Part shown: positions 6,265 through 52,717 of the stretch, piece by piece
Layout of the letters: each line of letters opens with the position of its first letter
How positions within the stretch are numbered: the stretch's first letter is position 1
Assembly (NCBI GenBank): GCA_963664405.1
Contig: OY761158.1
Location: 544,001-608,000, forward strand
Length of the DNA stretch: 64,000 bases
Source of the DNA: Thermoanaerobaculia bacterium
GTDB taxonomy: Bacteria; Acidobacteriota; Thermoanaerobaculia; Multivoradales; Multivoraceae
Direction of reading: 5' to 3'
Translations under genes and position numbers: made by a program
The notes under the pieces: generated by a model
The model's input: the letters and a program-made list of their open reading frames with translations, nothing else
What the model was told of the DNA's origin: nothing
Database searches by the model: none

Positions 6265-6987
6265 ATGACTCTAGAGCTCTCGGCACCCGGCTCCTTAGTT
6301 ACCCGAGCGAGGGAGAAGAACCCTCGTCTCGCTCACCTCCAGCGAAGAAGGCTGGAGGAGGAGCTGAAGTCGGTAAAGACGGGGATCATGTGCGCGCTCA
6401 ATATGCTGCTGGATCTCAAAAATCTGCGCACTGGATTGCACGCGACACGCCTCGCCGAATGGGCGGTCCTCGCAGCCGAGAACCTAGGAGTGGATGAGAG
6501 TGAGCTCCGAGATATCGAGGCCGCATCTCTTTTACACGACATCGGCAAGATCGGTCTCCCGGATTCCATTCTGCTGAAGCCGGGAAAGCTCTCCGATGAA
6601 GAGTTCGCGATCACCAAGAAGCATCCCGAGTACGGCTGGGCAATCCTGAGATCGATTCCCGGACTCGAGAAAGCCAGCCTCTTGGTGCTGCATCATCACG
6701 AACGTTTCGACGGTAGGGGCTACCCCTCGGGCCTAGCGGGAGAGAACATCCCTCTCGGGTCTCGCATCGTGGCCGTCGTCGATGCCTTCGACGCCATGAT
6801 CTCGAGCCGCGCCTACCGAGACGCCCTGCCCCTCGAAGAGGTGCTTCGCCGCCTCGACGCCGACACCGGCAGTCAGTTCGACCCCAAGATCACGCCCTTC
6901 TTCATCGAGCTGTCGAAGGAGCATCTGCCCGAGCTGATGAAGCGCGACGAAGACGTCCCCGCCGGCCTGGCCCGGGTTCTGCCTTAG
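6265..6987 (+). CDS. HD-GYP domain protein (cyclic-dinucleotide phosphodiesterase family)
   Basis: HATRLA, LLHDIGKIG, HHHERFDGRGYP, RIVAVVDAFDAM, QFDP motifs. Confidence 0.92.
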   Translation: MTLELSAPGSLVTRAREKNPRLAHLQRRRLEEELKSVKTGIMCALNMLLDLKNLRTGLHATRLAEWAVLAAENLGVDESELRDIEAASLLHDIGKIGLPDSILLKPGKLSDEEFAITKKHPEYGWAILRSIPGLEKASLLVLHHHERFDGRGYPSGLAGENIPLGSRIVAVVDAFDAMISSRAYRDALPLEEVLRRLDADTGSQFDPKITPFFIELSKEHLPELMKRDEDVPAGLARVLP

Positions 6988-7188
6988 TCTCGGCTCTCCA
7001 CTGGCCCATACACATCTTTGCATTGGCTCAAGCGACTGGGCTACAATTACTGGTTAGCCTTTAGGGGTCAAGCGGATTTTCCGCACAAAGACCCTTTGAA
7101 ACACCTTCTCCCGCGTTACGGCGGGGGTAGGAAATCAGTACTGCGCTTTGGCGCAGTAGCTGCGCATTGTATTAATAACAAAGGAGTT

Positions 7189-7284
7189 ATGCATGTATCA
7201 GCCACACACGAAGACCGGTCATTCCGTCAGTCCAATCCTGGAGTAAGTGCTCCGATAGCGATTCTTATAGGAGACACGACATGA
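7189..7284 (+). CDS. possible 31-aa small ORF at the head of the peptide array (MHVSATHEDRSFRQSNPGVSAPIAILIGDTT)
   Basis: AAAGGAG lies just upstream but with unusually short spacing. Its stop overlaps the next ATG (ATGA). It lacks the shared leader and core motifs. Confidence 0.3.
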   Translation: MHVSATHEDRSFRQSNPGVSAPIAILIGDTT

Positions 7285-7448
7285 AGATCAAAACGGACCT
7301 CCGAGGCGGCTATTCGTCGCCCAAAGCCGATTCAGAACGGCCAAGCAACAACCCGCAGGAATACTGCATTCAACGCCCATCGTCGCTTCTTTGGCCCCCC
7401 TCCGCTATCACGCAGACGGGTAACTGCGTCGCGGCGATTCTCGAATAG
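7281..7448 (+). CDS. peptide precursor, long type 1 (55 aa) MKIKTDLRGG-YSSPKADSERPSNNPQEYCIQRPSSLLWPPSAITQTG-NCVAAILE
   Basis: RBS AGGAG, ATG 7281, TAG 7446-7448; double-Gly-type leader; C-terminus shared with neighbouring ORFs. Confidence 0.8.
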   Translation: MKIKTDLRGGYSSPKADSERPSNNPQEYCIQRPSSLLWPPSAITQTGNCVAAILE

Positions 7449-7479
7449 AAACCCAACCTAAACCTAGATCGGAGAAGAG

Positions 7480-7533
7480 ATGAAAAACCTAGTCCTAAAG
7501 ACAGGCAACACCGTAGCAGCCATCTTGGAATAG
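7480..7533 (+). CDS. peptide precursor, short type B (17 aa) MKNLVLKTG-NTVAAILE
   Basis: RBS GGAG, ATG 7480, TAG 7531-7533; same VAAILE C-terminus as the long types. Confidence 0.75.
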   Translation: MKNLVLKTGNTVAAILE

Positions 7534-7574
7534 TGGCTCCACAATACCGAACGCGAATTTTTCGAGGAGATCCG

Positions 7575-7631
7575 ATGAACGTCAAGACCAACGTCAAAGC
7601 TGGTTCCCATCTCAACCACATCATGGAATAG
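7575..7631 (+). CDS. peptide precursor A copy 1 (18 aa) MNVKTNVKAG-SHLNHIME
   Basis: RBS GAGGAG; three synonymous differences from the other copies. Confidence 0.85.
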   Translation: MNVKTNVKAGSHLNHIME

Positions 7632-7666
7632 CCCTAGCTAACTCAACAGATATTTGGAGAAATCAA

Positions 7667-7723
7667 ATGAACATCAAAACCAACGTCAAGGCCGGTTCCC
7701 ATCTCAACCACATCATGGAATAG
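7667..7723 (+). CDS. peptide precursor A copy 2 (18 aa) MNIKTNVKAG-SHLNHIME
   Basis: RBS GGAG; conservative V-to-I change in the leader. Confidence 0.85.
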   Translation: MNIKTNVKAGSHLNHIME

Positions 7724-7759
7724 CCCTTAGCTAACTCAACAGATATTTGGAGAAATCAA

Positions 7760-7816
7760 ATGAACGTCAAAACCAACGTCAAGGCCGGTTCCCATCTCAA
7801 CCACATCATGGAATAG
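7760..7816 (+). CDS. peptide precursor A copy 3 (18 aa) MNVKTNVKAG-SHLNHIME
   Basis: RBS GGAG, ATG...TAG in a 93-bp repeat unit. Confidence 0.85.
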   Translation: MNVKTNVKAGSHLNHIME

Positions 7817-7852
7817 CCCTTAGCTAACTCAACAGATATTTGGAGAAATCAA

Positions 7853-7909
7853 ATGAACGTCAAAACCAACGTCAAGGCCGGTTCCCATCTCAACCACATC
7901 ATGGAATAG
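7853..7909 (+). CDS. peptide precursor A copy 4 (18 aa) MNVKTNVKAG-SHLNHIME
   Basis: RBS GGAG, ATG...TAG in a repeat unit. Confidence 0.85.
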   Translation: MNVKTNVKAGSHLNHIME

Positions 7910-7944
7910 CCCTAGCTAACTCAACAGATATTTGGAGAAATCAA

Positions 7945-8001
7945 ATGAACGTCAAAACCAACGTCAAGGCCGGTTCCCATCTCAACCACATCATGGAGTA
8001 G
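7945..8001 (+). CDS. peptide precursor A copy 5 (18 aa) MNVKTNVKAG-SHLNHIME
   Basis: RBS GGAG; final Glu codon is GAG instead of GAA (synonymous). Confidence 0.85.
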   Translation: MNVKTNVKAGSHLNHIME

Positions 8002-8008
8002 CGCAGTC

Positions 8009-8179
8009 ATGAAAATCAGAACAGACATCAAAGCAGGCTATTCAGCAACCAAGATGGAATCCCTCCCCAACCTGGAGCTGCCGCGACTCACACTCGACGA
8101 CTTCCCCAGCGTGAAGGAAGAGACTCTCAGCAGGCCCTTCTTCAAGACCGGCCAAGCAGTCGCTGCGATCCTCGAGTAG
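8009..8179 (+). CDS. peptide precursor, long type 2 (56 aa) MKIRTDIKAG-YSATKMESLPNLELPRLTLDDFPSVKEETLSRPFFKTG-QAVAAILE
   Basis: ATG 8009, TAG 8177-8179; leader and C-terminus homologous to 7281..7448. Confidence 0.8.
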   Translation: MKIRTDIKAGYSATKMESLPNLELPRLTLDDFPSVKEETLSRPFFKTGQAVAAILE

Positions 8180-8223
8180 GTTTCTTTGAAGGGGGAGCCG
8201 CAGTGCTCCAACCCGACAAGGAA

Positions 8224-8256
8224 GGGACTCGAACTTCTTCTTGAAGAGAGTGTCCC
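8224..8256. terminator. possible hairpin between the convergent peptide array and ABC gene
   Basis: gggac...gtccc outer arms with an inner cttc/gaag stem; no clear U-tract. Confidence 0.25.
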
Positions 8257-10373
8257 TACGAGTGCGCGATCGCGACGACGCTGGGAACCCGCTCTAACAC
8301 GAGCTTCGAAGCTCTCAGAGCGTTACCACTATCCAGCGGCTCGAAACTCTCATCGAGAATCGTAAGACCTTCGTTCTGAAGAAGCGTTCGCGCCAGAAAG
8401 ACCCGGTTTCGCTCACCATGAGAGAGCTGCCAACCGGTGTCACCCACCATCTGAAAAATCCCTGCAGGCATTCGCTCGATTAGCTCGCCAAGACCGAGCT
8501 CGCGACACACCTGTTCCGCCTCAGCAATGTCTGAAGGCAACGCCGGCCATCGGCGGCCCATCAAGAGATTGAAGGCGAGGCTCTCGCTGAGGATGTGGTT
8601 CTCGTGGAATTGAGGAGCCAAGACGACCTGGCGGCGCCAACGCTTCACGCCGGTACTGTGCTGATCGAGCCCCCCAAGCAATAGAAGGCCCGAGTCCGGG
8701 CGACGCAAGCCTGCCAGGAGCGCAGCCAGGGTGGACTTGCCTCCGCCCGAAGGCCCCTGCAACAAAATACGGTCTCCCTCTCTGACTTCCACGTCACAAG
8801 AGTGGAGTACCGCCTCTGGCCGACCCGGGTAGGAGAAGCTCAGATCTCGGGCCTCCAAGAGCTTCCCATCCGCCGGTCTGTCACCCACCACGACACCTGG
8901 CGCACTCGGTAGCTGGGGTCGCGCGGCGGCGGCGAAGATCTCTCGAACGCTCCGCCACGCCACGACGGCGCCGAAGAGCTGCGCCATGCCCGCTGCGATC
9001 GACAGCAAGGCCCTGTAGGTGAGCAACACTCCACCAAGACCTATGGCAACCCGTACTAGAGTGACCTCGCCCGCCACCATGCTGGGGGCGAGCCCAAGAA
9101 CGCCTATCACCAGCCAACCGCGAGGTACGAGCGCGCCGAGCGCGGCGGTAACCCGATCGAGACCCACCGAGTGGCGAAGGTAGGCCTCGAGCTCCTGATC
9201 CTCCTGATCATGCCAGTGCGCCCTTCCCTCCTGGGCGAGGCGAGTCCGATACCCAAGCATGTTCTCGACCAATTGATGAGTAAGCTCGAGACGCGCCGAA
9301 GTCCACTGCTCTCGACAGCGAAAGTAAAACCAGCCGAGGCCGGCGGTCACTCCCAGCCACAACAGGAGCAACAGAACATGGAGAGCGCCGCCCGCGCCCT
9401 CGGCCAAAACGAAGGACGCCATCAGCACTTCGATGCTGCCAAAGAACAGCAGGAATCCCCCGCCGAGCGCAAGCGACTCCAGCGCCTCCGACTCCAAGAC
9501 CTTGCCGAGCAGCTCACCAGCTCCCTGATGGCGAATCTCCTCGGGCTCGAGCCGCATCGCGCCAGCAAGCAGTCTCTGCTTGAGGGCTCCCCCCGCTCGA
9601 ACGGAGATCTCGCCCTGCAGCCAGGTACTCCACATCCGCAGCGGCACCAGACTAAAGAGAATGAGCACCCAAGCGGTCAGCCAGCCACGGTCGATATGCC
9701 CCTGTAAGGCAGCACGTCCCACGATCCACCAAGACAGCATGTACATGGCGTATTGGGCAGCATGGGCAACGCCAAGGGCCACAGAGCGCCCGACAACACC
9801 CATACGCGAGAGTCGGCGGCGAAACGAAGAGCCAGCTGGGGCGCGCAGCATCCATATACTGCCTAAACGCTGCGAGGCCAGACGCTGCCGCAAGATCTCT
9901 TTCCTTGCCCGCTCCTCGTCTTTCGCCGCCACCCCCGCACTGCGAAGGAACGCCCTGACTTCACCGTCGAGAGGATCCTCGAGGCGCGCGCAGATCCAGC
10001 CCGCCACAGTTTCCGCCGGCACTCGCTCGATCGCGAGGTCGGGGCTCAGCAACAAGGCTCTGCCACGGCGTGAGCCAAGCAGGGCCAGGAAGCGAAACTC
10101 CTGATCGACTCGCAGCCGCAGAACAGCCGGACCGCCTCGCCGAAGGAAGAGCTCGACCTCGGGGTAAGTTACTTGTGTAGCCTCGGCGTCGACACCGAGC
10201 CACTCACAAGCGGTCTCGGTCCACAACGCTACTTCCGCCGCGTCGTCAGGGTTGAAAGAAGCGGGAGGGTCCTCGACCTTCTGGCGCGAGAGCCCAGATC
10301 GAAAGGTCATCTCGCGAAGAAGCTCTCCGAGCCTTGCCGCCGGCCACGTCGCCTCCCAGGGGCCGACGATCAC
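8256..10373 (-). CDS. ABC exporter subunit 2 (TM + NBD, N-terminal C39-like domain without catalytic Cys)
   Basis: Walker A GPSGGGKST, LSHGERNR, LTILDES. The GTG start at 10373 overlaps (GTGA) the reconstructed stop of the upstream PCAT gene. Confidence 0.88.
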   Translation of the reverse strand: MIVGPWEATWPAARLGELLREMTFRSGLSRQKVEDPPASFNPDDAAEVALWTETACEWLGVDAEATQVTYPEVELFLRRGGPAVLRLRVDQEFRFLALLGSRRGRALLLSPDLAIERVPAETVAGWICARLEDPLDGEVRAFLRSAGVAAKDEERARKEILRQRLASQRLGSIWMLRAPAGSSFRRRLSRMGVVGRSVALGVAHAAQYAMYMLSWWIVGRAALQGHIDRGWLTAWVLILFSLVPLRMWSTWLQGEISVRAGGALKQRLLAGAMRLEPEEIRHQGAGELLGKVLESEALESLALGGGFLLFFGSIEVLMASFVLAEGAGGALHVLLLLLWLGVTAGLGWFYFRCREQWTSARLELTHQLVENMLGYRTRLAQEGRAHWHDQEDQELEAYLRHSVGLDRVTAALGALVPRGWLVIGVLGLAPSMVAGEVTLVRVAIGLGGVLLTYRALLSIAAGMAQLFGAVVAWRSVREIFAAAARPQLPSAPGVVVGDRPADGKLLEARDLSFSYPGRPEAVLHSCDVEVREGDRILLQGPSGGGKSTLAALLAGLRRPDSGLLLLGGLDQHSTGVKRWRRQVVLAPQFHENHILSESLAFNLLMGRRWPALPSDIAEAEQVCRELGLGELIERMPAGIFQMVGDTGWQLSHGERNRVFLARTLLQNEGLTILDESFEPLDSGNALRASKLVLERVPSVVAIAHS

Positions 10374-10433
10374 CCCCGGCCCTCCTCCCCCGCGATCTCG
10401 CGCAACCCACCTCGCTCCAACCAAAGCCGGCGC
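10370..10433 (-). pseudogene. detached native 3' end of the peptidase-containing ABC transporter
   Basis: Removing IS21 and one GGCGC copy restores ...SGARWR-RLWLERGGLREIAGEEGRG*, with TGA at 10370-10372. Confidence 0.8.
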
Positions 10434-10461
10434 TGTTACCGGCTACGAGAAAGCGCACTTA

Positions 10462-12466
10462 GGGTCGGCGCGGAAATAACTTCACATTATCGCCGGAGCG
10501 TGTGAGGCCGAGGCGCCACAGGGCGGTCGCTGCATTGGAGGTGGTGGTGAGCTGAGCCCAGGCTGTGGGGCAAGCTCTTCCTGCTCGGTTCGCGGTCTCG
10601 GCGAGAGGGTGTAGTTCCACTTTCCTAGGAAGTCGCTCCTGGCCACCGCGAGCTGCAGCATTTCCTTGTCCGATACCCTGACTCCTTTCTGGTATTGGCG
10701 TTGATCACGGCACGGCTCGACGCGCAGTCCGGTGGATGTCGTCGTGTTGCGGACGAGGTTGACGAGGATCTCGAAACTCTCGAGAGGAACTCCGGCCCAG
10801 TTCTTGCTGATCTCGCTGAACATCCTGTGCTCGATGGGATTCCATTTACTGGTGCCAGTTGGATAGTGGGCGACGGTGATGATGAGGCCGCACTTGTCTA
10901 CGAGCTTCTCCTGGAGGTACTTCTTCCAGGCTCGAAGCCGTGCGCCGTTGCTTGCGCCGCTGTCGGCAAGAATGAGGAGACGCTGAGACGCCGGATAGTG
11001 AGATCGACCGTATTTGAGCCACCAGGTCGCGATGCTGTTGACAGCGAACTCCGGCGTGTCCGACGACTGTCCGAGGACGAGAACGCCGAAGTTCCTCTGA
11101 AGATCGTAGATCCCATAGGGGGAGGCGATGGCGAGAGCTTCGGACCGGAAGTCGTGATCCTTGACCCGCTTGGCCTCGCGGCACCATGTCTGTCCCTGGT
11201 TCTTGAACCGACCGATCAGCTCCTTCTTCTTCGTATCGACGCTGATGATCGGGTCGCCAGCGCTTGTGAAATCCTCGCGCAGTCGCTTGATGGCCTTGAA
11301 CTGTGCATCACGATCTGGGGAGTTCCCCGAAGACAGACATTTCCTATTGCTCTTGAGGGAATAGTTCAGGTCTGCGAGCAATCGACGCACCACCGTAGCC
11401 GATACGATGATGTCAAGGCGTTCGGCAAGGCATTGGGCCACCTTTGCAGCGGTCTCGTGCGTCCATCTTTTTGATGACATGGGATCACCAGCTATATCGG
11501 CCTCGAGTATGGAATGGATTCCATCGACTATCTCGGGCGTTTTTTTTCCACTCGTTGGTTGCCACCGCCTGCTCTTCGAACTCTTCCGCGCTCCACGGAG
11601 CCGCCGAAGAGCTCGCGACGTCCTTTTGCGACTGTATGAGGGTCCAGGTCCAGAAGATCGGCGATCTTCCGGTCGCCGCCATGCCCGAGCTTGGTCGCTT
11701 CCAGGCCAGCGAAGAGCCGCCGCTGGCGTTCGTCTAGCAGGCTGAAGAATAAAACGATGGCAGCCCTGAGCTCCTCGGGGAGCACTTCTGGAACGAGGCT
11801 GGCAGCTACATCCTGGAGAGCCTGCCGTTCGTTGCGCATCAGCTTCTGCTGACGACGGCGCCCTGTTTCCGAGCACAAGTATACGAACCTCTTCCCAACT
11901 CTGGATCGTACGATTCTCTTGCGACGAACGAGGTGCAACATCGCGTGCTTGACCTCGACCTGCAGCAGGAGCTCGAGTTCAGAAGCCGTATAGCCGGCAG
12001 CGGACCGGTCCACGGCAGCCACCGCAGTTTCGAGGAGGCTGCCATGCCGACTGAACCTCGCCGAACCGCACGACCACAAACCCAGATCGTCGAAATCGGG
12101 AATCTCGTTCAAGGTATAGAACCGCCCTCGATCCGAGTAGCTGGCCAAATAGCCCAATCGAGACAGCGAACGGTAGACCGTCATGGTGGCTCGGGTTCCC
12201 ATGGCGTCCTTGAGCTCATCCATGGTGGCCATCTGTTCGCTCATCAAGAGCTCGCGCACTGTTGCATCACGATCTTCGGCTCGTACCATTTGGTATAGTT
12301 CCCCTTCCAAAAGAGGTGACAGGGAAAACTATACCAAATGCGGGCAGGGCTATGCTAGCTCTAAACCTTGCAAACAAGGCGCGTACCGGAGGATTATGCG
12401 GTGGCTGAAGAAGGGGGCAGTGGTATGGTCACCCCAGATACTGGAAACTTATTTCCGCGCCGACCC
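10462..12466 (-). mobile_element. ISAzo13-family element (2005 bp), 18-bp IR GGGTCGGCGCGGAAATAA, TSD TTA
   Basis: Perfect IRs; TTA at 10459-10461 and 12467-12469; lengths agree (3390+2005+3=5398). Confidence 0.93.
10482..12310 (-). CDS. ISAzo13-family transposase, two ORFs joined by a -1 frameshift at an A8 run
   Basis: ORF 11528..12310 (LDERQRRLFAG...RRAGGG) and downstream frame (ISVDTKKKELIG, ADSGASNG, SKWNPIEHRMF); T8 on the + strand at 11540-11547. Confidence 0.88.
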
Positions 12467-12807
12467 TTAGTTGGCTGCGAGTCGGTTTTTTGTCCCCGCG
12501 AGGCGTGACTCAGGGTGTGGCGCAGATAGTCGAGGTACCCCTCGGGGGGTGGCGTCGTGGGGAGTTCTCGGAGGATGGGGAGAAAGTAGGCGAGGGATCG
12601 GATGGGCTGGAGCTTTGGTAGGCGCGGATCTCGGCATGCGCGTCGGGCGGAGCCGAGGAGGAGGGCGGCCTGGAGGACGGTGAGAGGCAGGTCTTGGTCG
12701 AAGAGCTGGTCGACGATGACGCGGTCGCCGTGGTGGAAGCGGTGCGGGGTGTCGGGAAGGAGTCGATAGAGGCGGAGGAGCTGGCGCCGATAGTGGCTTC
12801 GGGTCAT
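12394..12807 (-). CDS. IS21 accessory ORF, C-terminus altered by the ISAzo13 insertion
   Basis: Identical to 52361..52717 up to ...SQPTK; ATGA overlap with istB. Confidence 0.55.
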   Translation of the reverse strand: MTRSHYRRQLLRLYRLLPDTPHRFHHGDRVIVDQLFDQDLPLTVLQAALLLGSARRACRDPRLPKLQPIRSLAYFLPILRELPTTPPPEGYLDYLRHTLSHASRGQKTDSQPTKGRRGNKFPVSGVTIPLPPSSATA

Positions 12808-13598
12808 GAGCGTCGTCGTGCTGCGCTCCGCCTTTTGGCGCGGTCCTTGGCCTTTTTTTCAGCAGCCTCCTTGGCCTCCTTGCGGCGATAGGAGTTAGCC
12901 TCGATCTTGACGATCTCGGCGTGGTGGGTGAGTCGATCGACGAGAGTGACGACGCAGGAGGCGTTGGGAAAGACCTCGGCCCATTCGGCGAAGGGCTTGT
13001 TGGTGGTGAGAAGAATGGGCTTGTTGCCGTATCTCCTGGAGACGACCTCGAAGAGGAGATCCGCGTGGCGGTGGTCGTAGGAGAGATAGCCGAGCTCATC
13101 GATTGCCAAAAGCGAGGGTCGGGTGTATTTGGAGAGCCTTCTCTGGAGCGCCGAGGGGGTTTCCTGGACGGCGAGATCGTTGAGCATGTCGGAGGCGGTG
13201 ACGAAGCTGGCGGTGGCCCCTCGTTGCAGCGCCTGGTAGAGGAGGTTCTTGGCAATCATGGTCTTGCCGACACCGTTGGGTCCGAGGAGGATGACGTTGG
13301 TGATGTCGTCGAGGAATTGGAGGGTGAGCAGATCCTGGATCTGCTCGCGGTCGATGCGCTGGGGCCAGGAGAAGTCGAAGTCGGCGATGCTCTTGAAGAG
13401 CCCGACGCGGCTGGTGCGGATGCGCCGTTCGAGGCTGCGCCGTTTGCGCTCGGCCTCTTCTTTGCGCAGCAGCTGTTCGAGCCAGGGCTGTTCTCGGTAG
13501 GTGCCCCAGTCGTCGACGAGGGCGTAGAAGCCGAGGGATCGGGCGAGCTCTCGTAGTGGTTCGTCAGGGATCGTTGGACTCTTCCTGGGTCGGGCCAT
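12804..13598 (-). CDS. istB: IS21 helper ATPase IstB
   Basis: FDFS, GPNGVGKT, LLAIDELGY, LTTN, DRLTHH, SYR. Confidence 0.95.
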   Translation of the reverse strand: MARPRKSPTIPDEPLRELARSLGFYALVDDWGTYREQPWLEQLLRKEEAERKRRSLERRIRTSRVGLFKSIADFDFSWPQRIDREQIQDLLTLQFLDDITNVILLGPNGVGKTMIAKNLLYQALQRGATASFVTASDMLNDLAVQETPSALQRRLSKYTRPSLLAIDELGYLSYDHRHADLLFEVVSRRYGNKPILLTTNKPFAEWAEVFPNASCVVTLVDRLTHHAEIVKIEANSYRRKEAKEAAEKKAKDRAKRRSAARRRS

Positions 13599-15072
13599 CG
13601 TCGTTGCCTCCAAGTTGGTCGTAGTCCTCGAGGTTGTGCGGTCTCACGGAGAGATCTCGCTGTTGGAGCTCCTGGCTGAGCGGCACCGGTAAAGCCGGGG
13701 GCTGACCGAGGCCGCGCTGGTGCCGTTCGAGTAGGAGCCGGACGGACTGGAATCGCGGTGCGTGGTTCAGGAGCGCTTCGCGCACGGCTTTGTCGAGTCG
13801 CTGGGGGCCGTACTGGCGCAGGAGTCGGAGCAGGCCGGCGGTCTGCGTTCCGAGGTTCTCGCCTCGCTCGGCGAGCTGCTGCATCAGCTCTTCGCATCGA
13901 GGCACAGCGGAAAACAGCCGATGGAAGCCCCGGTGTCGTCGGGCCCTGCGTTTGTGAGCGAGGAGCTCCTCGAGGTGTTGAGGATCGAGGATCTGCTCGC
14001 CCCGGGAGTACGAGCGAGGGTGCTCGGCGAGGAGCTCCTGGCCATCGAGGATCCGCACCCGATGCTCGCTGGCGAGGAGCGTGACGGTCCTCTGCACATG
14101 ACTGTGCGGCACCGAGTAGTCGTTGAGGTCGAAGCGCACGATCGGCGTCTTTCTGACCTTGATCTCCAGTCGCAGGTCGGTTTCGAAGTCGTCTCCGGGA
14201 AGCTCAAGCAGTCGAGGTCGTTCCTGGGCCAGGGCGCTTTTCACGGTTCGCTGTCGGTCCTGCGGCCAGGGTCTGCGCTGCGACCTCTGGCACCATTCCA
14301 GGACCTGCCGATTCAGACGATCCAAATCGCTCACCGTTCGGGCGCCGAAGAACGAGCTTCGCAGGAAGCGGATTGCGCGCTCGACGCGGCCTTTCTCATT
14401 TCCCCGAGCCACCGCGGCGACGGTGGGAAGGAAGCCGTAGTGGCTGGCGAAATCGAGCAGCACGGGATGGAAGCGCACCGCGGTTCCCTGCCGCTCGATC
14501 ACCGCGGTTCGCAGGTTGTCGTACAGAACGGTCCTGACGACGCCGTCGACGTAGTGGAAGGCCAGCTGGTGAGCGTGCAAGAAGGTTTCGAGACGAGTGT
14601 CGAGGGTGAAGTGCACGAAGACCGTGCGCGAGAACGACAGCACGAAGACGAAGGCATAGAGCCGACGATGTGCCCGGCCGACGCGGAGCCGACCGAAGTG
14701 GCCCCAGTCGACCTGCGCCTGCTCTCCTGGCAGCATGCGCAGCGAGAGAAACGCCTCGCGCTGGGGCTTCGGTCGCATCGAGGCCACCAGGTGGCGAAAC
14801 TGATCCGGGCCTCCTGGATAGCCGCGCTCCACCACCATGGTGTAGAGACGGCTCGCCGGCAGTCGTGGGTAGGTCCCGAGCACCTGCTCGATGAACGGCA
14901 GGTAAGGATCGATCATCCTCCCTCGTCGCTGCTGGGGTAGCACGCCGGACTTCTCCAGCGCCCGGCGCACGGTTGAGGGGTGCAGCTGTAGCTGTCGAGC
15001 GATCGTGCCGACTTTCCACTTCTCGACCAGGAACAGACGACGGATCTCCCCGCGCAGCTGTGCGTCGATCAC
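13564..15072 (-). CDS. istA: IS21 transposase IstA
   Basis: PGEQAQVDWG, LYDN, KGRVER, YSVP; probable GTG start at 15072. Confidence 0.95.
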   Translation of the reverse strand: MIDAQLRGEIRRLFLVEKWKVGTIARQLQLHPSTVRRALEKSGVLPQQRRGRMIDPYLPFIEQVLGTYPRLPASRLYTMVVERGYPGGPDQFRHLVASMRPKPQREAFLSLRMLPGEQAQVDWGHFGRLRVGRAHRRLYAFVFVLSFSRTVFVHFTLDTRLETFLHAHQLAFHYVDGVVRTVLYDNLRTAVIERQGTAVRFHPVLLDFASHYGFLPTVAAVARGNEKGRVERAIRFLRSSFFGARTVSDLDRLNRQVLEWCQRSQRRPWPQDRQRTVKSALAQERPRLLELPGDDFETDLRLEIKVRKTPIVRFDLNDYSVPHSHVQRTVTLLASEHRVRILDGQELLAEHPRSYSRGEQILDPQHLEELLAHKRRARRHRGFHRLFSAVPRCEELMQQLAERGENLGTQTAGLLRLLRQYGPQRLDKAVREALLNHAPRFQSVRLLLERHQRGLGQPPALPVPLSQELQQRDLSVRPHNLEDYDQLGGNDDGPTQEESNDP

Positions 15073-15076
15073 GCCC

Positions 15077-15472
15077 CTATCTCCGTCGGCAACGACGAAA
15101 GCTCGTTCGCACAAACTCTCGGCAGGCCTCTCCACACTGCATGCATCGCGGATTCCTCGGGTCGTAGCGCACTTCGCGCCTCGGAGTCTCGATCCGACAC
15201 AGTGTCCTCCCCGAAGTACCGCCTGGGGTACCCTGATGCGTCACTTTCTCTGCCCGCTCGCGCTGGCGCCGACGGTAGCGGGCCTGACGGGCGGCATGAC
15301 AATGCCGACCTCGGAGGCTTCGCTGGTACCGATGGCCGGCCGCCCGAGTCGATTCCCGACGAGCCACCAGAGCACAAGCCCGGCAGTAACGCTGGCCACG
15401 GTCACAGTGCGAGCACAGCGAGATACGCCGACGGCATCGAGCACAGTCGAAGAGTCGGTAGTCCGGTCGCAT
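15077..15472 (-). CDS. Cys/Arg-rich accessory ORF upstream of istA
   Basis: CARC...CSHCDRGQRYCRAC...CMQC; GGGAGG RBS; present in both IS copies. Confidence 0.6.
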   Translation of the reverse strand: MRPDYRLFDCARCRRRISLCSHCDRGQRYCRACALVARRESTRAAGHRYQRSLRGRHCHAARQARYRRRQRERAEKVTHQGTPGGTSGRTLCRIETPRREVRYDPRNPRCMQCGEACREFVRTSFRRCRRR

Positions 15473-15769
15473 CGTCGCCTCCCATTCGACGACGACCCCG
15501 ACTCTCTGCCATACTGCAAGCGCAGCTAATGCTGCGGTTTGGGGCAGAGCCCGGGGCGTTTTCTACTTCGCTTTCCCGGGCTCTCGCCGTCTCTGGTCGG
15601 CCTGCTCTATCAGAGCAGAGCCCGCACTGCAAAGCCCTACACCGACTCACGCATCTCTTCCGACCGCAAACACGCCGCCGGGACCACGCACCCGGACCGC
15701 CGTTCCGGCGGGATGATGCCGCCCTTCCTGAAGAAGGCCTAGCTTTCCCGCGGTCGCGAAGCCCTCAGC

Positions 15770-18478
15770 TCACTCCATCCCGGAAACTGCGCTCGCAGCC
15801 AACGGGATGCGCTTTCTCGCAGCCATCAACAGGCGCCAACGAGCACCCGACCACATCTCATTCCGTGCCACCTCGTCCGCCGTGAGCAACGCGGCGTAAC
15901 GACTCTCCGGCTGTCGCGCCAACTCCTCCGGCTTCCCCTGCTCAACAACTCGGCCACTTTCCATCACCAGCACTTTGTCGAACGCCAGAGTCTGCCGCAT
16001 GTCATGGGTGACGTAGAGCAGCGTCGCACCACTCCACAGTGCCCTACAACGCTGCAAGAGAAGGTTTCGATCGTGTCGATCAACCCCTCGAAATGGCTCG
16101 TCAAGCACGACGAGGCGCGCCTCGGGCCTCATCATGCCGCGCCCCAGCCGCACCCGCTGGCCCTCTCCTCCCGACACCAACCCTCCGCCTTCGCCGAGGG
16201 TGGTCTGCATGCCGTCGGGCAAGCTCTCGAGGACCTCCTTCAGCAACGCCGCTTCGATGACTCCACCGAACCCCTCCCGACGCGCGCTGTAACGAAGGTT
16301 CTCTACCAAAGAGCGATTCCAGATCCTCACACCCGGATCGACCCACGCGGTATCGGCGCGAAGGCGCTCGAGCCTGGCAGGGCCGAGCGGAGCATCATCG
16401 ACGAGCAGCTCGCCGGTGGCCGGCCGATACCAGCCGAGAAGAAGCCCCACCAGAGTCGATTTCCCAGAGCCCGACGGCCCGACAATCGCCACGTGCTCGC
16501 CCGCTTGCACCTCGGTCTGAACGTCACGCAAGATCGGGTGCCCGCCGACCACGACGCCAAGCTCACGCATCCCGATCGTAATCCCTCCACCGAGGCGGCC
16601 CTCCACAACATCCTCGGCGCCCGCATCCTCCTCAGGAGTCGACGCACCCAAGGGCTCGAGCAACCTCAGAGCGACATTGCGCTGCCACGGGTACCGACTC
16701 CACAAGGCGGCGATCTCCTGAGCCAGGGCCGGCAAGCTCAAGGCCCAATAGACGAGTAAGAGTACGGTGCCTGCCGATGCGGAACGCTGCAAATGGGACA
16801 GAACAAGAACGACCACCAGTCCAAAACCGACAAACTGCTGAAGTCCCTGGAGTGAGGCGATCAGGCGCTGCAGCCGAAAACCGGCTCGAGACCACTCACT
16901 GACCAGGATCTCGTGCTCTCTTTGCACCACACTCTCCGCCGAGTGAGCGCGGACCGCGACAAGGCCAAGCAGGCCGTCCAGGTAGAAGCGCGTCAGCGCG
17001 CCGGCGTGACTGCGCAAACGAAGATCGCGCTCAACCAGAGAGCGGTGCGCTAGGAGTGGAATTGCCAACGCTGCTACCGCGGCTCCGATCGCCCATGGCG
17101 CGCTGCGTGGGTCGAGCCAGATGATCCCGGCGGTCACCAGCACCAGCTCGAAGCTGGCCCTCAGGAGCTGGCCGACCAGAGGCGTCACATTACGCAGCTG
17201 ATGAATGGCGTGGCTGCGCTCAGCCATGTCCGAGCTCAAGCGGCTCGAAAAGTAACGCTCGCCCAAGGCGGGCAACTTGCGTAAGAAAGCGATCCGCAGG
17301 CGCAGCTCGAGGCGACGACCCAGACGCAATAGACCCTGCGCAACCGGAAAATCCAGTAGCAGCAGAAGGAAGGCCAGAGAGCCGACCGCCAACACAGCGC
17401 CAAGGCGCTGCACCGAAAGTTCCAGCTGAAGCCCGAGATCAAGTACCGACCGCAGTAGCAAAGCTTCGAGCAATACCCCGCCCGCCGCCACCGCGGTCGC
17501 GCCGATCAGCACCGAAGGCGCCAGCAAACCGTCCTCGCGTAGAAGCTCCAAGAGCTTCCGTCCCGGACTCGCTCCGGTCTCACGGAGGGTGGCTAAGACA
17601 CTCTCTGGGGCGACACCCGCGGCCTCGCCCCGCGACTCTCCCGCATTTGCGCCCGCCCCCTTCTCGCCGTCTCGACGTCCTTTGATCCTGACCAGTAGCG
17701 ATCCGACAAGAGCAAGATCGCCGCTCTGACCGTCAGCCCCAGCCTTCGCGGTCGCGGGCCTCACCGACCAATAGGTTTCCGGAACCTCCTCGGCACGCGC
17801 GCCTTCGAGAGCCGCCAGAGCCTGGCTACCTGCGTCGAGTCCCCCGGCCCTCACCAGTGCATCAACCATACGAGTGGACGCATCAAGCAGTGCGATCGAC
17901 TTCCAGCTCTCATCTTCGAAAGCATGATCCACGATCTGCGCCCCGCCGCCCTTGGCCACCCCGACCCGATCCAGACGCCGCGTAAGCGCCCCTACGAACT
18001 CATCCGACTCGGTCCACTGTCGCCAACCCTCGCTCGGAACCACGAACTCATGGGCGTAGACCTCTTCGAGAAAGTCTCTCGCATGCACCCAGCGGCGGCC
18101 GATGGACGGGTCCATGACCTGAAGGTACGAGCCATGGCGCCGCCATGCCACAACGAAGTGAGTAGACCCGTTGGGTAGGCTGGTCACAACGATGGCAGGC
18201 AGCGCGCGGGCCTCGGGAATCAACAGGTGATCGCGGGGCACCATCACCTGCTCGGCATCGAGCCCGAGACTGCAGGCCAATTCTTCGAGAGTGTCGATCG
18301 AAGTGCCGTCGACATCGGTCTGGCAGGCCTCGCGGAGGCGGCCATAGCTAGCGTCAATGCCGTAGCCCCCCAGAATTGCCTTGAGCACCGCAGGACCGCA
18401 GTCCATGGCGGAGCTCTGGATTACTTCGGGGACAACAAGCTTCCGGCTTTGAGACTTTGGCAGTCGGGCTACCATCAA
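15770..18478 (-). CDS. peptidase-containing ABC transporter (C39 + TM + NBD); last 20 aa derive from the IS21 end
   Basis: QSSAMDCGPA (Cys), HFVV (His), MDP (Asp); GPSGSGKST, VSGGEGQR, LVVLDEP. Confidence 0.93.
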   Translation of the reverse strand: MMVARLPKSQSRKLVVPEVIQSSAMDCGPAVLKAILGGYGIDASYGRLREACQTDVDGTSIDTLEELACSLGLDAEQVMVPRDHLLIPEARALPAIVVTSLPNGSTHFVVAWRRHGSYLQVMDPSIGRRWVHARDFLEEVYAHEFVVPSEGWRQWTESDEFVGALTRRLDRVGVAKGGGAQIVDHAFEDESWKSIALLDASTRMVDALVRAGGLDAGSQALAALEGARAEEVPETYWSVRPATAKAGADGQSGDLALVGSLLVRIKGRRDGEKGAGANAGESRGEAAGVAPESVLATLRETGASPGRKLLELLREDGLLAPSVLIGATAVAAGGVLLEALLLRSVLDLGLQLELSVQRLGAVLAVGSLAFLLLLLDFPVAQGLLRLGRRLELRLRIAFLRKLPALGERYFSSRLSSDMAERSHAIHQLRNVTPLVGQLLRASFELVLVTAGIIWLDPRSAPWAIGAAVAALAIPLLAHRSLVERDLRLRSHAGALTRFYLDGLLGLVAVRAHSAESVVQREHEILVSEWSRAGFRLQRLIASLQGLQQFVGFGLVVVLVLSHLQRSASAGTVLLLVYWALSLPALAQEIAALWSRYPWQRNVALRLLEPLGASTPEEDAGAEDVVEGRLGGGITIGMRELGVVVGGHPILRDVQTEVQAGEHVAIVGPSGSGKSTLVGLLLGWYRPATGELLVDDAPLGPARLERLRADTAWVDPGVRIWNRSLVENLRYSARREGFGGVIEAALLKEVLESLPDGMQTTLGEGGGLVSGGEGQRVRLGRGMMRPEARLVVLDEPFRGVDRHDRNLLLQRCRALWSGATLLYVTHDMRQTLAFDKVLVMESGRVVEQGKPEELARQPESRYAALLTADEVARNEMWSGARWRLLMAARKRIPLAASAVSGME

Positions 18479-18683: not shown

Positions 18684-19316
18684 ATGACCGACTGGCAACT
18701 CACAGATCTCGTCGACTACCTCCGCGGCGCCAGCCATGCCGAGACCACGGAGGCAATCAAACAGGATCTCGCGGCCGGGAATCGAGAAGCCCGCGCCGAC
18801 CTCGACCTCTTCGGCGAAGTCGCAGCGGTGGTAAGCACCGACTTCTCCGACACCCCCCCCGAATCGGCCCTTCGAGCGGCAAGAGCCGCCTTCACCCTGA
18901 CCTCGCCCTTCAGCACCTCGGCACCTCCATTTCTAGAAACGCAAAAAATAGGGAACTCCGACGCGGCCTCGCAGACCGTCGGTTTGCGCGGACCGGCGAG
19001 AGATCACCAAGACCTGCACTTTCGCGGCGCAGGCTTCGATCTCGAGCTCAGCGTGGACATGCCGACCGAGAGCAGCGACGTCGTGATCGTCGGCCGCCTG
19101 TCGAAAGCGGCCTCGCAGCCGTGGAGCATCGATGAGGTGCCGGCTCTCCTCATCAGCCGCGACGAGCCCCTCGCCTCGACGGTGACCAACCGCTTCGGTG
19201 AGTTCCATGTGCAATGTCACAGCGAAGACAGCGTCGAGCTCCGCATTCTTGTCCCAGATCTTGGCCAGATTCGTATTCCCCTCGAGCTCCCCGAGTCGGG
19301 CGACGCCCCGTCCTGA
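18684..19316 (+). CDS. soluble anti-sigma-like protein (degenerate zf-HC2-type N-terminus, beta-rich C-terminal domain)
   Basis: LVDYLRG...EAIKQDLAAGNREA resembles an anti-sigma domain lacking Zn ligands; no TM segment; directly upstream of the ECF sigma gene. Confidence 0.55.
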   Translation: MTDWQLTDLVDYLRGASHAETTEAIKQDLAAGNREARADLDLFGEVAAVVSTDFSDTPPESALRAARAAFTLTSPFSTSAPPFLETQKIGNSDAASQTVGLRGPARDHQDLHFRGAGFDLELSVDMPTESSDVVIVGRLSKAASQPWSIDEVPALLISRDEPLASTVTNRFGEFHVQCHSEDSVELRILVPDLGQIRIPLELPESGDAPS

Positions 19317-19323
19317 AACACCA

Positions 19324-19899
19324 GTGACGGATCCGCCCTCCTCCAGCTGGGATGACGCAGCCCTAGTTGACGCCTGCATCAGCGGCAGTCAGGAGGGCTG
19401 GGACGCACTAATTCTCAAGTATCAGAACCTGGTGTGGGCGATCATCCGGCGCAGCGGGGCAGCCAGCGGTGAGGAGGAGGACGCTTTTCAGGCGGTATGG
19501 CTCGACGTCTACAACGAGCTCGAGAACCTTCGCAGTCGAGAGTCTCTGCAAGCCTGGATCGCCACCGTCACCCGCCACAAGTGCTACCACTGGCGCGCCA
19601 AGCGTCGAAGACTACCGCAGGGCCTAGACGAGACCTGGGCCAACGCGATCCCCGACCAAAACGCACTTCCAGAGGAGGCTCTCGAGCGACTCGACCGAGA
19701 TCAAAAGATTCGGCTGGCCATTCATAGCCTGCAGCCGGAGTGCCGGGAGCTCCTGGCCCGGCTCTTCCTCAGTGATCCTCCACGGCTCTACCGCGAGATT
19801 GCCGAAGAGCTTGGAATGGCGATCGGGTCGATCGGCTCGCTGCGGTCCCGATGTCTCGAGAGGCTCAAGGAGGAGCTGGTTCGCCAGGGGCTGCCGTAG
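19324..19899 (+). CDS. ECF-type sigma-70 factor
   Basis: DAALVDACISGSQEGWDALI, EDAFQAVW, AWIATV, YREIAEELGMAIGSIGSLRSRCLERL; probable GTG start at 19324. Confidence 0.92.
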   Translation: MTDPPSSSWDDAALVDACISGSQEGWDALILKYQNLVWAIIRRSGAASGEEEDAFQAVWLDVYNELENLRSRESLQAWIATVTRHKCYHWRAKRRRLPQGLDETWANAIPDQNALPEEALERLDRDQKIRLAIHSLQPECRELLARLFLSDPPRLYREIAEELGMAIGSIGSLRSRCLERLKEELVRQGLP

Positions 19900-20383: not shown

Positions 20384-21547
20384 CTAGGCTCCCTCTACCA
20401 GTCTCCCGACCGACCTCAATACCAGTCCCAACGGTGACGAGCTCTCGACCTCGACCTCGAGCTCACCCGGCAATCCATGCTCGAGCACGATCCCGGCAGG
20501 CACGCCCGGTTCGATACTGAACTCCACTCGGACCCTGCCATCGCGGGCCTCTGAGTCTACGTTCGATACTCGAGCCTCGACGCTCCCGTAATGGGTCCAT
20601 GGGTACCCATCGAGCCGTAGGCGCGCACGTTGCCCCGGTCGGATGCGACCGACGGCCTTGCCGGGCTCGAACTCGGCCACCACGACATGCCCCCTGTCAC
20701 TCTCAGGCACGATCGCACAAAGCTGATCGCCCGCCGCAACGTAGGCGCCCTGGAGAAGAGACTCCGCGATCTTAGCGACCGTACCGCTGACGGGCGCTCT
20801 GATCGAGCGTTGCCCGAGCTCTACCTCTAGCCGCTCCTCGGTTCTTTCAGAAGTGTCGATCGAGCCGCGCAACTGACTTGCCTGCCGGTGCAGACCCTCG
20901 ATGTCACTCCGGCGATCCCTCTCCTCGATTCGCAGTTGCTCCTGACGCCGCGCCACCGCCGTACGACGCTGCGACTCGATCGCCTGAGCCATCGCCATCT
21001 CCGACTTCGCCTTCTCGAGATCTCGAACCGATTGCACCCCCTGCTCTTTCAGTTCCAGGACCTTGGCGTGATTGGAGACCGCGAACTCTCTCGCCGCCTC
21101 GGCTTCGTTCAAAGAGGCCTCCAGCTCCTCTACCTCCAGGCGGGCCGCGTTCTTCAACTGCGCCAGCGCCTTCTCCTCGGAAGCGATCTCGCCGCTGAGG
21201 TCGGTCAACTCCGATTCGCTCCCTCTACGCGCGGACTGCCTCTCGGCCAATTGCAGCTCCTCGGTGCGGGGGTCCAACTCGAGCAGAAGGTCACCGGCTT
21301 CGACTCGTCTCCCCAGCGAGATGTGAGTCGCGACAACTCTTCCAGATACGGGCGCGGCAACCGCATGGCTCGCGCCACGAACCTCCACCCGAGCCGTCTC
21401 ACTCACTTCGTAGAGAGAGATGCTGGCGAAGAAGAACCACAAGCCCCAGGCGGTCAGGAGCAACAGCGAAGCCACCAGCATGACTGCTGAGAACCGGAAC
21501 GAATCCGCCTCTAAGGAGCGCGCAGAGCGTGAGAATGGGATCGCCAT
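20384..21547 (-). CDS. HlyD-family membrane fusion protein
   Basis: N-terminal TM, VAAPVSGRV, coiled coil, IRAPVSGTV, YPWTHYG. Confidence 0.92.
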   Translation of the reverse strand: MAIPFSRSARSLEADSFRFSAVMLVASLLLLTAWGLWFFFASISLYEVSETARVEVRGASHAVAAPVSGRVVATHISLGRRVEAGDLLLELDPRTEELQLAERQSARRGSESELTDLSGEIASEEKALAQLKNAARLEVEELEASLNEAEAAREFAVSNHAKVLELKEQGVQSVRDLEKAKSEMAMAQAIESQRRTAVARRQEQLRIEERDRRSDIEGLHRQASQLRGSIDTSERTEERLEVELGQRSIRAPVSGTVAKIAESLLQGAYVAAGDQLCAIVPESDRGHVVVAEFEPGKAVGRIRPGQRARLRLDGYPWTHYGSVEARVSNVDSEARDGRVRVEFSIEPGVPAGIVLEHGLPGELEVEVESSSPLGLVLRSVGRLVEGA

Positions 21548-49336: not shown

Positions 49337-49695
49337 TGTTGATGGCTGCGAGAAAGCGCATCCCGTTGGCTGCGAGCGCAGTTTCCGGGATGGAGTGAGC
49401 TGAGGGCTTCGCGACCGCGGGAAAGCTAGGCCTTCTTCAGGAAGGGCGGCATCATCCCGCCGGAACGGCGGTCCGGGTGCGTGGTCCCGGCGGCGTGTTT
49501 GCGGTCGGAAGAGATGCGTGAGTCGGTGTAGGGCTTTGCAGTGCGGGCTCTGCTCTGATAGAGCAGGCCGACCAGAGACGGCGAGAGCCCGGGAAAGCGA
49601 AGTAGAAAACGCCCCGGGCTCTGCCCCAAACCGCAGCATTAGCTGCGCTTGCAGTATGGCAGAGAGTCGGGGTCGTCGTCGAATGGGAGGCGACG

Positions 49696-50091
49696 ATGCG
49701 ACCGGACTACCGACTCTTCGACTGTGCTCGATGCCGTCGGCGTATCTCGCTGTGCTCGCACTGTGACCGTGGCCAGCGTTACTGCCGGGCTTGTGCTCTG
49801 GTGGCTCGTCGGGAATCGACTCGGGCGGCCGGCCATCGGTACCAGCGAAGCCTCCGAGGTCGGCATTGTCATGCCGCCCGTCAGGCCCGCTACCGTCGGC
49901 GCCAGCGCGAGCGGGCAGAGAAAGTGACGCATCAGGGTACCCCAGGCGGTACTTCGGGGAGGACACTGTGTCGGATCGAGACTCCGAGGCGCGAAGTGCG
50001 CTACGACCCGAGGAATCCGCGATGCATGCAGTGTGGAGAGGCCTGCCGAGAGTTTGTGCGAACGAGCTTTCGTCGTTGCCGACGGAGATAG
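49696..50091 (+). CDS. Cys/Arg-rich IS21 accessory ORF
   Basis: Same sequence as 15077..15472. Confidence 0.6.
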   Translation: MRPDYRLFDCARCRRRISLCSHCDRGQRYCRACALVARRESTRAAGHRYQRSLRGRHCHAARQARYRRRQRERAEKVTHQGTPGGTSGRTLCRIETPRREVRYDPRNPRCMQCGEACREFVRTSFRRCRRR

Positions 50092-50095
50092 GGGC

Positions 50096-52364: not shown

Positions 52365-52717
52365 CCCGAAGCCACTATCGGCGCCAGCTCCTCCGCCTCT
52401 ATCGACTCCTTCCCGACACCCCGCACCGCTTCCACCACGGCGACCGCGTCATCGTCGACCAGCTCTTCGACCAAGACCTGCCTCTCACCGTCCTCCAGGC
52501 CGCCCTCCTCCTCGGCTCCGCCCGACGCGCATGCCGAGATCCGCGCCTACCAAAGCTCCAGCCCATCCGATCCCTCGCCTACTTTCTCCCCATCCTCCGA
52601 GAACTCCCCACGACGCCACCCCCCGAGGGGTACCTCGACTATCTGCGCCACACCCTGAGTCACGCCTCGCGGGGACAAAAAACCGACTCGCAGCCAACTA
52701 AGTGCGCTTTCTCGTAG
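52361..52717 (+). CDS. IS21 accessory ORF downstream of istB
   Basis: ATGA overlap; LPDTP...PIRSLAYFLP. Confidence 0.6.
   Translation: MTRSHYRRQLLRLYRLLPDTPHRFHHGDRVIVDQLFDQDLPLTVLQAALLLGSARRACRDPRLPKLQPIRSLAYFLPILRELPTTPPPEGYLDYLRHTLSHASRGQKTDSQPTKCAFS

Follow-up and report, generated by a model that had tools for sequence, protein, structure and literature searches.

We report that a stretch of Acidobacteriota DNA carries a tandem array of five 18-codon genes, and that these genes belong to a family of tagged mini-genes linked to one type of C39-peptidase ATP-binding cassette (ABC) exporter. The stretch (hereafter the window) comprises 64,000 nucleotides of a Thermoanaerobaculia bacterium (assembly GCA_963664405.1, contig OY761158.1, positions 544,001 to 608,000), and all coordinates refer to it. 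We consider it probable that the array and its relatives are genes for leader-tagged octapeptides that are cut after Ala-Gly, exported, and kept in multiple copies for output. The coding nature of the open reading frames (ORFs), their multi-copy layout and their linkage to the exporter type are presented first, followed by the proposed route of processing and export and by the alternatives to it.

Structure and integrity of the five-copy array

The array lies on the plus strand at 7575..8001 and consists of five tandem units of 92-93 bp, each made up of a ribosome-binding site (RBS) and an ORF encoding MN(V/I)KTNVKAGSHLNHIME. Five such units had been described in an earlier note made from the letters of the DNA, and both Tandem Repeats Finder (TRF; single array at 7575-8002, period 93, 4.6 copies, 97% matches) and the ORF starts (Table 1; unit lengths of 92, 93, 93 and 92 bp, then a last ORF of 57 bp) agree with it. 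The product is MNVKTNVKAGSHLNHIME, with Ile at position 3 in copy 2; it can be written as the 10-residue segment MN(V/I)KTNVKAG followed by the core SHLNHIME, and GGAG(A) precedes every ORF. The differences between copies are those first read in the letters: four synonymous changes (aag for K4, aaa for K8 and gct for A9 in copy 1; gag for E18 in copy 5) and one conservative replacement (V3I in copy 2), all five being transitions. The spacers are identical but for the single-base indel seen earlier, an additional T in units 2 and 3, and the core is unchanged in 5/5 copies. Of the possible single-base changes in the array ORF, 20% are synonymous (31% if only transitions are counted), and given this share at least four synonymous changes among five have a probability of P = 0.007 to 0.036. 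Taken alone, the synonymous excess among the five copies is suggestive but weak.

The array is not an assembly artefact. In X1 and X3, runs from two studies of which one may be the source sample of the assembly, short-read contigs break at 7631 and restart at 7968, and these contigs show no alternative joints at the array. A 119-bp contig of the inner unit has a depth of 13.3 in X1, compared with 5.1 and 3.1 for the flanks, and of 14.9 in X3, compared with 6.2 and 4.4, which amounts to about 2.5-3 times the depth of the flanks. Because depth is a single figure per contig, copy number was only roughly checked in this way, and the exact number of five rests on the assembly. In a seawater run (X8), the contig of a relative jumps from 7250 to 7575 and from 7600 to 8007; with only 26 letters on the short side, a different array in that relative is too weakly supported to call.

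A cluster of nine mini-genes

The five copies belong to a larger group, nine mini-genes at 7193-8179 that all lie on the plus strand (Table 1). The earlier note had missed this cluster, as well as the tag family tied to a C39 exporter and the decayed copies in a relative that are described below. All nine products end in [KQ]-[TA]-G, five residues and I-[LM]-E-stop. Across the genome (6.78 Mb) there are 11 matches to the tail motif [TAGS]G-x5-I[LMIV]E-stop, 9/11 of them within this 1 kb, and seven of the ten tag-bearing short ORFs of the genome lie within the cluster. Two of the four mini-genes outside the array, those of 55 and 56 codons, carry the N-terminal tag. The peptide region has a G+C content of 48%, compared with about 60% in the flanks. 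The 56-codon precursor is also kept beside the array in the three related loci L002, L003 and L125 (protein P0002 is 79% identical).

In both long precursors (8009-8179 and 7281-7448) the first 17-19 residues align with the whole 18-mer, that is with the tag and an octapeptide-like part with an ME or SE end, and this part is followed by a linker, a second K/Q-T-G and an octapeptide. Judged by this alignment, the two look like fusions, so that one chain could yield two peptides.

A search of 6800-8500 against Rfam gave nothing at E <= 1, a scan for the sigma-70 consensus found no plus-strand promoter ahead of the cluster, and terminator-like sites around it are no commoner than in shuffled sequences. 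A GC-rich hairpin at 7140-7170 (cagtactgcgc tttg gcgcagtagctg), between the upstream HD-GYP gene and the first mini-gene, appears terminator-like in the scan.

Coding signature and related arrays

The ORFs are coding and conserved. In 19 pairs of adjacent paralogues the differences number 24, 19 and 63 at codon positions 1, 2 and 3, a count that is weakened by the fact that the pairs are not all independent, several loci being close kin (L046/L048; L002/L003 from one metagenome-assembled genome, MAG). Nine pairs outside the window encode identical peptides with 27 synonymous differences and 2-29 differences in the upstream 40 nt; such pairs have zero non-synonymous changes by definition, and their weight lies in DNA that has drifted around an unchanged peptide. 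When units from the window, L002, L003 and G349 are aligned, the ORF is kept, as is GGAGA ahead of the following start codon, and the spacers are not. The earlier claim that the repeat is a peptide gene under selection is supported, and by this comparison much more strongly than by the five copies alone: the 10-residue N-terminus and the RBS recur, whereas spacers and synonymous sites have diverged.

These results also bear on the view that the repeat is non-coding (a repeat element or a small-RNA array) or an assembly artefact, with accidental ORFs. The ORFs do lie under the usual gene-caller size limit, and the interior copies are near-identical including their spacers, as in any young repeat. 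Nevertheless, we regard this view as exceedingly improbable, since codon position 3 holds most of the variation, peptides are identical across diverged paralogues in many genomes, an RBS is kept before each ORF, Rfam contains no match, and independent short-read contigs together with their depth back the repeat.

The layout of the window, with HD-GYP, an 18-codon tandem array, a long precursor ending KTGQAV[AS]AILE and a convergent ABC gene, is shared by L002, L003 and L125. Locus L002, from a Thermoanaerobaculia MAG (52% identity for the ABC and 66% for the HD-GYP protein), carries MKIKTSVKVGQSIDCIKE four times, alongside a variant that contains an in-frame insertion. The same MAG has another, partly degraded locus, L003, which comprises four units (cores QSSCAITE, QSIDCINE and QSIDCIKE) plus one decayed copy. 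In L125, which is a metagenome contig (HD-GYP 70%, ABC 55%), the core QSVVAILE recurs in three copies whose leaders differ conservatively; its cores show two synonymous and no non-synonymous differences per pair. Copy numbers in the four loci are therefore 5, 5, 4 and 3, and the core is uniform within a locus and different between loci (SHLNHIME, QSIDCIKE and QSVVAILE across the array loci).

The comparison with related genomes that the earlier note called for hence shows copy numbers that differ between lineages and a multi-copy state that is kept. The note had also taken frameshifts or stops in related arrays as a sign against a peptide gene. Decayed copies are present in one relative (L002 unit 4 and two units of L003), but they look like birth-and-death turnover rather than non-coding DNA. 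The multi-copy state and the uniformity within each locus would fit concerted evolution under selection for several copies. We infer that dosage may be the selected trait, as the multi-copy state in four loci fits selection for dosage; copy number may in addition vary within populations, and the peptide may act as a signal, as was suggested earlier. In the Thermoanaerobaculia arrays, different lineages retain 3-5 tandem copies of the same tiny gene although its core changes; selection for dosage and the concerted evolution of a peptide gene can thereby be put to the test.

Outside these four loci, the genome G349 (another family of the same order) has an octapeptide gene, MKVKTNVKAGQSTAHILE, beside a gene for an extracytoplasmic function (ECF) sigma factor of the TIGR02999 type and one for a kinase-TPR protein. 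After this octapeptide gene, at about 9520-9700 on the minus strand of its locus L107, we read by eye mini-ORFs with GTG starts, (V)KARTQVVVGANPWFE and (V)KVRTNLVAGGNPWFE, ending NPWFE.

A tag family linked to one exporter type

The first ten residues constitute a tag, M-K-V/I-K-T/S-N-V-K-A-G, that is tied to one kind of exporter well beyond the window. Among 80 loci fetched solely by similarity to the 722-residue ABC protein encoded next to the array, 42 contain the tag, in 65 mini-ORFs, and the reversed-sequence control contains none; many of the remaining loci are contig fragments. Most of the hosts belong to the Acidobacteriota (Acidobacteriaceae, Bryobacteraceae, Pyrinomonadaceae and Thermoanaerobaculia), with Ramlibacter, Methylococcaceae and one Desulfobacterales MAG as further hosts. 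When 401 genomes of the class were searched with a DNA pattern, 17 matched, including the source genome, with 0/38 in the same family and none for the reversed pattern.

Together, the exporter-anchored loci and the 17 loci of the pattern search provide 71 distinct peptides. M1 and G10 are present in 71/71; position 9 is Ala in 60, Gly in six, Val in four and Ser in one, and positions 4 and 8 are Lys or Arg. Beyond G10 both length (6-50 residues) and sequence vary freely, with six residues in 33 cores and eight in seven. The invariant M1 and G10 followed by free variation thus form a leader-plus-core pattern. In 59 comparison loci, 38 have one tag ORF, 16 have two, four have three and one has five, so that the window and L002 are extremes.

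In the six loci with the tag ORF directly before the pump, the gene order is peptide(s), HlyD, C39-ABC and ABC (L009, L047, L061, and L006, where the HlyD ORF was unrecognised); in L023 and L057 the peptide genes come after the second ABC gene. The exporter trio is contiguous in relatives, whereas in the window it is split by insertion sequence (IS) elements and a sigma-factor gene. The C39 domain was compared on its own with the PDB, since the whole C39-ABC query matched only nucleotide-binding domains. It matches PCAT1 (4RY2/7N87) with E = 5e-9, and the positions of Gln, the Cys of DCG, the His of HFVV and the Asp of DP agree; it also aligns with a ComA-type domain, with the same four catalytic positions matching. 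Among NCBIfam models, TIGR03796 ranks first for the C39-ABC protein. The matches of the second ABC protein include TIGR03797, and its best specific model is NHLM_micro_ABC2, well under the cut-off of that model.

The family is unannotated because genes of 16-18 codons fall under the usual gene-caller size limit. Pfam and NCBIfam have no model for the peptides, the 18-mers being too short for such profile searches, and 11 tag-bearing peptides of 30-60 residues had no NCBIfam match even at E = 1. A literature search, which excluded bioRxiv supplements and subscription journals, found neither the tag motif nor the peptide family. The family is frequent beside one type of two-ABC pump in Acidobacteriota, and occurs also in Ramlibacter, methanotroph and other genomes; its peptides are a candidate cargo of pumps that would otherwise seem to lack one. 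This provides a handle on peptide communication or competition in soil and marine bacteria that are hard to culture.

Proposed processing and export

Based on this linkage, we propose the following multistep scheme, in which (i) each array copy would give an 18-residue precursor composed of the tag MNVKTNVKAG and the core SHLNHIME; (ii) the C39 domain of the neighbouring ABC transporter would most likely cut the precursor after Ala-Gly; (iii) the C39-ABC protein, the second ABC protein and HlyD would export free octapeptides, all ending in hydrophobic-x-Glu-COOH; (iv) repetition of the gene, with an RBS for every copy, would increase the peptide yield; and (v) gene conversion or unequal crossing-over would homogenise the copies of any one genome, the cores being different in different lineages. 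Since the cores consist of 6-8 unmodified residues, the product is more likely to be a diffusible signal than an antibiotic. If exported as proposed, the 10-residue tag would be a minimal export tag that breaks the known leader rules.

Several observations weigh against this scheme. According to PMC6363468, double-glycine leaders have hydrophobic residues at -4, -7 and -12 and a length of about 13 or more residues, and for LahT150 a 13-residue motif was needed and changing Leu-7 to Lys abolished cleavage. The tag has Val, Leu or Ile at -4 in 71/71 peptides; however, position -7 is Lys (65/71) or Arg (6/71), the leader of ten residues has no position -12, and the putative site is Ala-Gly instead of GG, GA or GS, so that Gly at -1 alone fits the double-glycine rule. 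Within the cluster, the ORFs at 7193 and 7480 (2/9) lack the canonical tag, and in G349 the tag-bearing octapeptide gene has no exporter within 10 kb. Both ABC proteins and the HlyD protein of the window score well under the NCBIfam NHLP cut-offs (192 vs 853.3, 94.7 vs 709.4 and 37.6 vs 156.2). Moreover, the IS pair is placed exactly where both ABC genes overlap in the relative L003, and the end codons of the C39-ABC gene are replaced; the pump may therefore be impaired or uncoupled in this genome, although both ABC reading frames are still open. Finally, RNA support comes from one contig of a metatranscriptome run (X20), whose library may contain DNA: 123 nt identical to ORF-spacer-ORF (7698-7820), with no flank sequence found. 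This contig is a weak hint of expression of the array, and parts of the stretch left uncovered in X20 do not mean silence.

The tag is related to the double-glycine leader but atypical and very short. We class the array and its family as a variant on the double-glycine/PCAT theme that falls in no curated family. Double-glycine peptides of PCAT/AMS systems (ComC/ComAB, BlpC, class II bacteriocins, LahA/LahT; PMC6363468, PMC7595303) are likewise small and ribosomally made, and in them too a variable core follows a conserved N-terminal leader whose last residue is Gly. Common features are further an adjacent C39 ABC transporter with matching catalytic positions, an HlyD adaptor and Val at -4. In contrast to these systems, the array tag has ten residues with Lys at -7, no -12 and an Ala-Gly end, the cores have 6-8 residues, the tag genes of 16-18 codons are unannotated, and a further ABC subunit, lacking a peptidase domain, belongs to the pump.

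The three-gene pump design and the presence of multiple precursors per genome are shared with the NHLP/Nif11 export module (TIGR03794, TIGR03796, TIGR03797), as outlined by Haft et al. 2010 (PMC2887384). However, the window pump scores below the family cut-offs, and the 10-residue leader matches no model, whereas NHLP/Nif11 precursors have leaders of 70-83 residues related to nitrile hydratase or Nif11 (PMC2887384). ProcA, with 30 substrates in Prochlorococcus MIT9313, and the 12 NHLPs of P. thermopropionicum (PMC6363468 and PMC2887384) likewise combine many precursor genes with one leader and one pump. In contrast to these sets, which as described there have diverse cores and many products, the array has a single core throughout, so that its five copies specify one product, next to a few variants.

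It is unlikely, in our view, that the mini-genes instead encode precursors of peptides that are made by ribosomes and modified after translation (RiPPs) or of a metal-binding compound, with modifying enzymes encoded elsewhere and with the His, Cys and Asp of the cores (SHLNH, QSIDC, QSTAH) as modification or ligand sites. A conserved leader with a hypervariable core is a hallmark of RiPPs, and the cores have H-x-x-H, D-C or H at matching positions. Among distant tag loci, L076 and L079 have genes for MauG-like di-haem peroxidases nearby, and L039 has one for a 2-oxoglutarate-Fe(II) oxygenase; Haft et al. (PMC2887384) note that precursors can be distant from modification genes and that the pump type is wider than the NHLP family. 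On the other hand, L076, L079 and L039 are the only annotated loci with a possible tailoring gene beside peptides and pump, and no modifying enzyme was seen in most annotated exporter-anchored loci. Pfam indicated no modifying enzyme within about 10 kb of the array, known tailoring-enzyme domains were absent near the array (window 1-24000), L002 and L003, and radical-SAM, YcaO, LanB/M, ATP-grasp or similar enzymes were not found near the array, L002, L003 or L125. In addition, the class of peptides with AAILE cores has no modifiable side chains past the first residues.

Association with TPR-CHAT and HD-GYP proteins

Complete TPR-CHAT genes together with HD-GYP flank the arrays in the window and in L002, where an ortholog of the 928-residue TPR-CHAT protein (42% identity) adjoins HD-GYP. 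L003 has a weak CHAT fragment and a TPR fragment, and L125 shows HD-GYP only, because the contig ends there. The TPR-CHAT family is large (3887 representatives at E <= 1e-30), and His797 and Cys841 (numbering of the 928-residue query) are near-invariant in it. Inspection by eye of the first 400 residues of the TPR-CHAT proteins of the window revealed neither a signal peptide nor a membrane anchor.

TPR proteins were considered as general neighbours of the tag family and rejected as such: after removal of ORFs below 130 residues, exporter genes and previously annotated loci, they adjoin two of 44 tag loci of the wider family. Orthologs of the TPR-CHAT protein (38-44% identity) occur in 11/100 other genomes of the order, at 14 loci, and none of the 14 has a tag or tail ORF within 1.5 kb; one genome, G225, has TPR-CHAT and HD-GYP without peptides and pump. 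The presence of TPR-CHAT and HD-GYP genes beside the arrays invites the hypothesis that the proteins act as receptors, but this putative link is local to the array subfamily.

Two readings build on this link. In the first, the octapeptides would be self-made signals of a Gram-negative peptide-sensing circuit that, after export and renewed uptake or after leakage, have their C-terminus clamped by the TPR part of the TPR-CHAT proteases, which together with HD-GYP would reset cyclic di-GMP, copy number setting the gain. If true, Acidobacteriota would possess a quorum-sensing system based on peptides and with a protease as its effector, yet we give this reading little credence. A predicted complex of the 928-residue TPR-CHAT protein (67-row alignment) with the 56-residue precursor (4-row alignment) scored 0.02, compared with a mark of 0.32, which speaks neither for nor against binding.

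In the second reading, the peptides would stay intracellular and serve the TPR-CHAT proteases and HD-GYP as ligands or substrates, the exporter being unrelated or clearing an excess. The flanking genes in the window and L002 are in line with this, as is G349, where the octapeptide gene stands beside the kinase-TPR and ECF sigma genes and no exporter. The invariant hydrophobic-x-Glu-COOH end resembles C-terminal tails that are clamped by TPR domains. We nevertheless judge an intracellular role to be improbable, as the co-occurrence of tag and exporter spans phyla and TPR neighbours are rare in the wider family, as the TPR-CHAT orthologs of 11 genomes stand apart from peptide genes, and as G225 has both partner proteins alone.

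In RRNPP and arbitrium systems, peptides leave the cell by Sec-type export, return by Opp import and meet transcription factors or phosphatases as receptors. These systems and the array subfamily have in common peptides that are short (5-8 residues) and unmodified, and TPR proteins beside peptide genes, which in our set adjoin them in the window, L002, L003 (as fragments) and G349, and at two of 44 other tag loci. Unlike RRNPP/arbitrium, the genes described here are accompanied by a C39 pump and TPR-CHAT proteases, and the putative TPR linkage is not general. An ECF sigma factor gene in the neighbourhood is shared with DdvA/DdvS of Myxococcus xanthus, described in PMC11506125 as an anti-sigma factor that spans the membrane and is regulated together with its ECF sigma partner. 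In contrast to DdvA as described there, the window TPR-CHAT proteins show no anchor by eye in their first 400 residues, and no anti-sigma factor was identified. The ECF sigma factors of the window and of G349 are not orthologs (BLASTP E = 0.08).

Neighbouring genes

The features of the region are listed in Table 1.

Table 1. Mini-genes and neighbouring features of the window.
Feature	Position	Strand	Basis or remark
Second TPR-CHAT protein, 809 residues	788..3217	+	domain annotation
TPR-CHAT protein (caspase-like), 928 residues	3174..6176	+	domain annotation
HD-GYP (HD_5) protein, stand-alone, immediately upstream of the mini-genes	6265..6987	+	same position in L002 (66% identity) and L125 (70%)
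17-codon gene MYQPHTKTGHSVSPILE	7193..7246	+	AAAGGAG RBS, shared tail motif, atypical N-terminus
55-codon precursor MKIKTDLRGG...QTGNCVAAILE	7281..7448	+	ORF and tail motif
17-codon gene MKNLVLKTGNTVAAILE	7480..7533	+	ORF and tail motif
Array ORFs	7575-7631, 7667-7723, 7760-7816, 7853-7909, 7945-8001	+	18 codons each, own GGAG RBS
56-codon long precursor MKIRTDIKAG...KTGQAVAAILE	8009..8179	+	ORF and tail motif
Second ABC transporter, 722 residues, without peptidase domain	8256..10424	-	convergent with the peptide genes
Two IS: ISAzo13-like, ~10458-12470 (~2.0 kb); IS21-like, 12466-15831 (~3.4 kb)	10458..15831	.	at the junction of both ABC genes
C39-peptidase ABC transporter, 902 residues	15770..18478	-	Pfam Peptidase_C39, E = 1.6e-20
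ECF-type sigma factor, between the C39-ABC and HlyD genes	19198..19899	+	domain annotation
HlyD-family periplasmic adaptor	20384..21547	-	domain annotation

Each IS has roughly 20 or more copies in the genome at 99.9-100% identity, a second IS21 copy lying in the window at 49368-52702, and the last ~20 codons of the C39-ABC reading frame fall within the IS21 copy. The near-identity of these copies points to a recent IS expansion that has split the exporter operon. The N-terminal 265 residues of the 722-residue ABC protein have no sequence relative in the PDB. Adjoining the HlyD gene, at 21619-23853 on the minus strand, is a gene for a 744-residue fusion of a pyridine-nucleotide-disulphide oxidoreductase and an AIR-synthase-related (SelD/ThiL-like) protein.

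Other tag loci

In Acidobacteriaceae loci, a protein of ~510 residues without a Pfam match is encoded next to the 16-codon tag peptide genes, in divergent orientation (L006:5163-6698, L007:5020-6555, L011:5538-7067, L018:4143-5681, L028:5526-7079, L031:4180-5751 and others). It is a candidate partner, either receptor or enzyme, of the xxxWGA peptides. Genes for DUF4159 and M14 carboxypeptidase proteins also recur in those loci. In Ramlibacter (L033, L042, L056), 2-3 tandem genes encode peptides of 30-35 residues with the tag and a conserved core (...SINNTV...RC[AV]G[IAVL]), and they adjoin genes for large proteins without a Pfam match; these peptides form a separate subfamily and may be modified.

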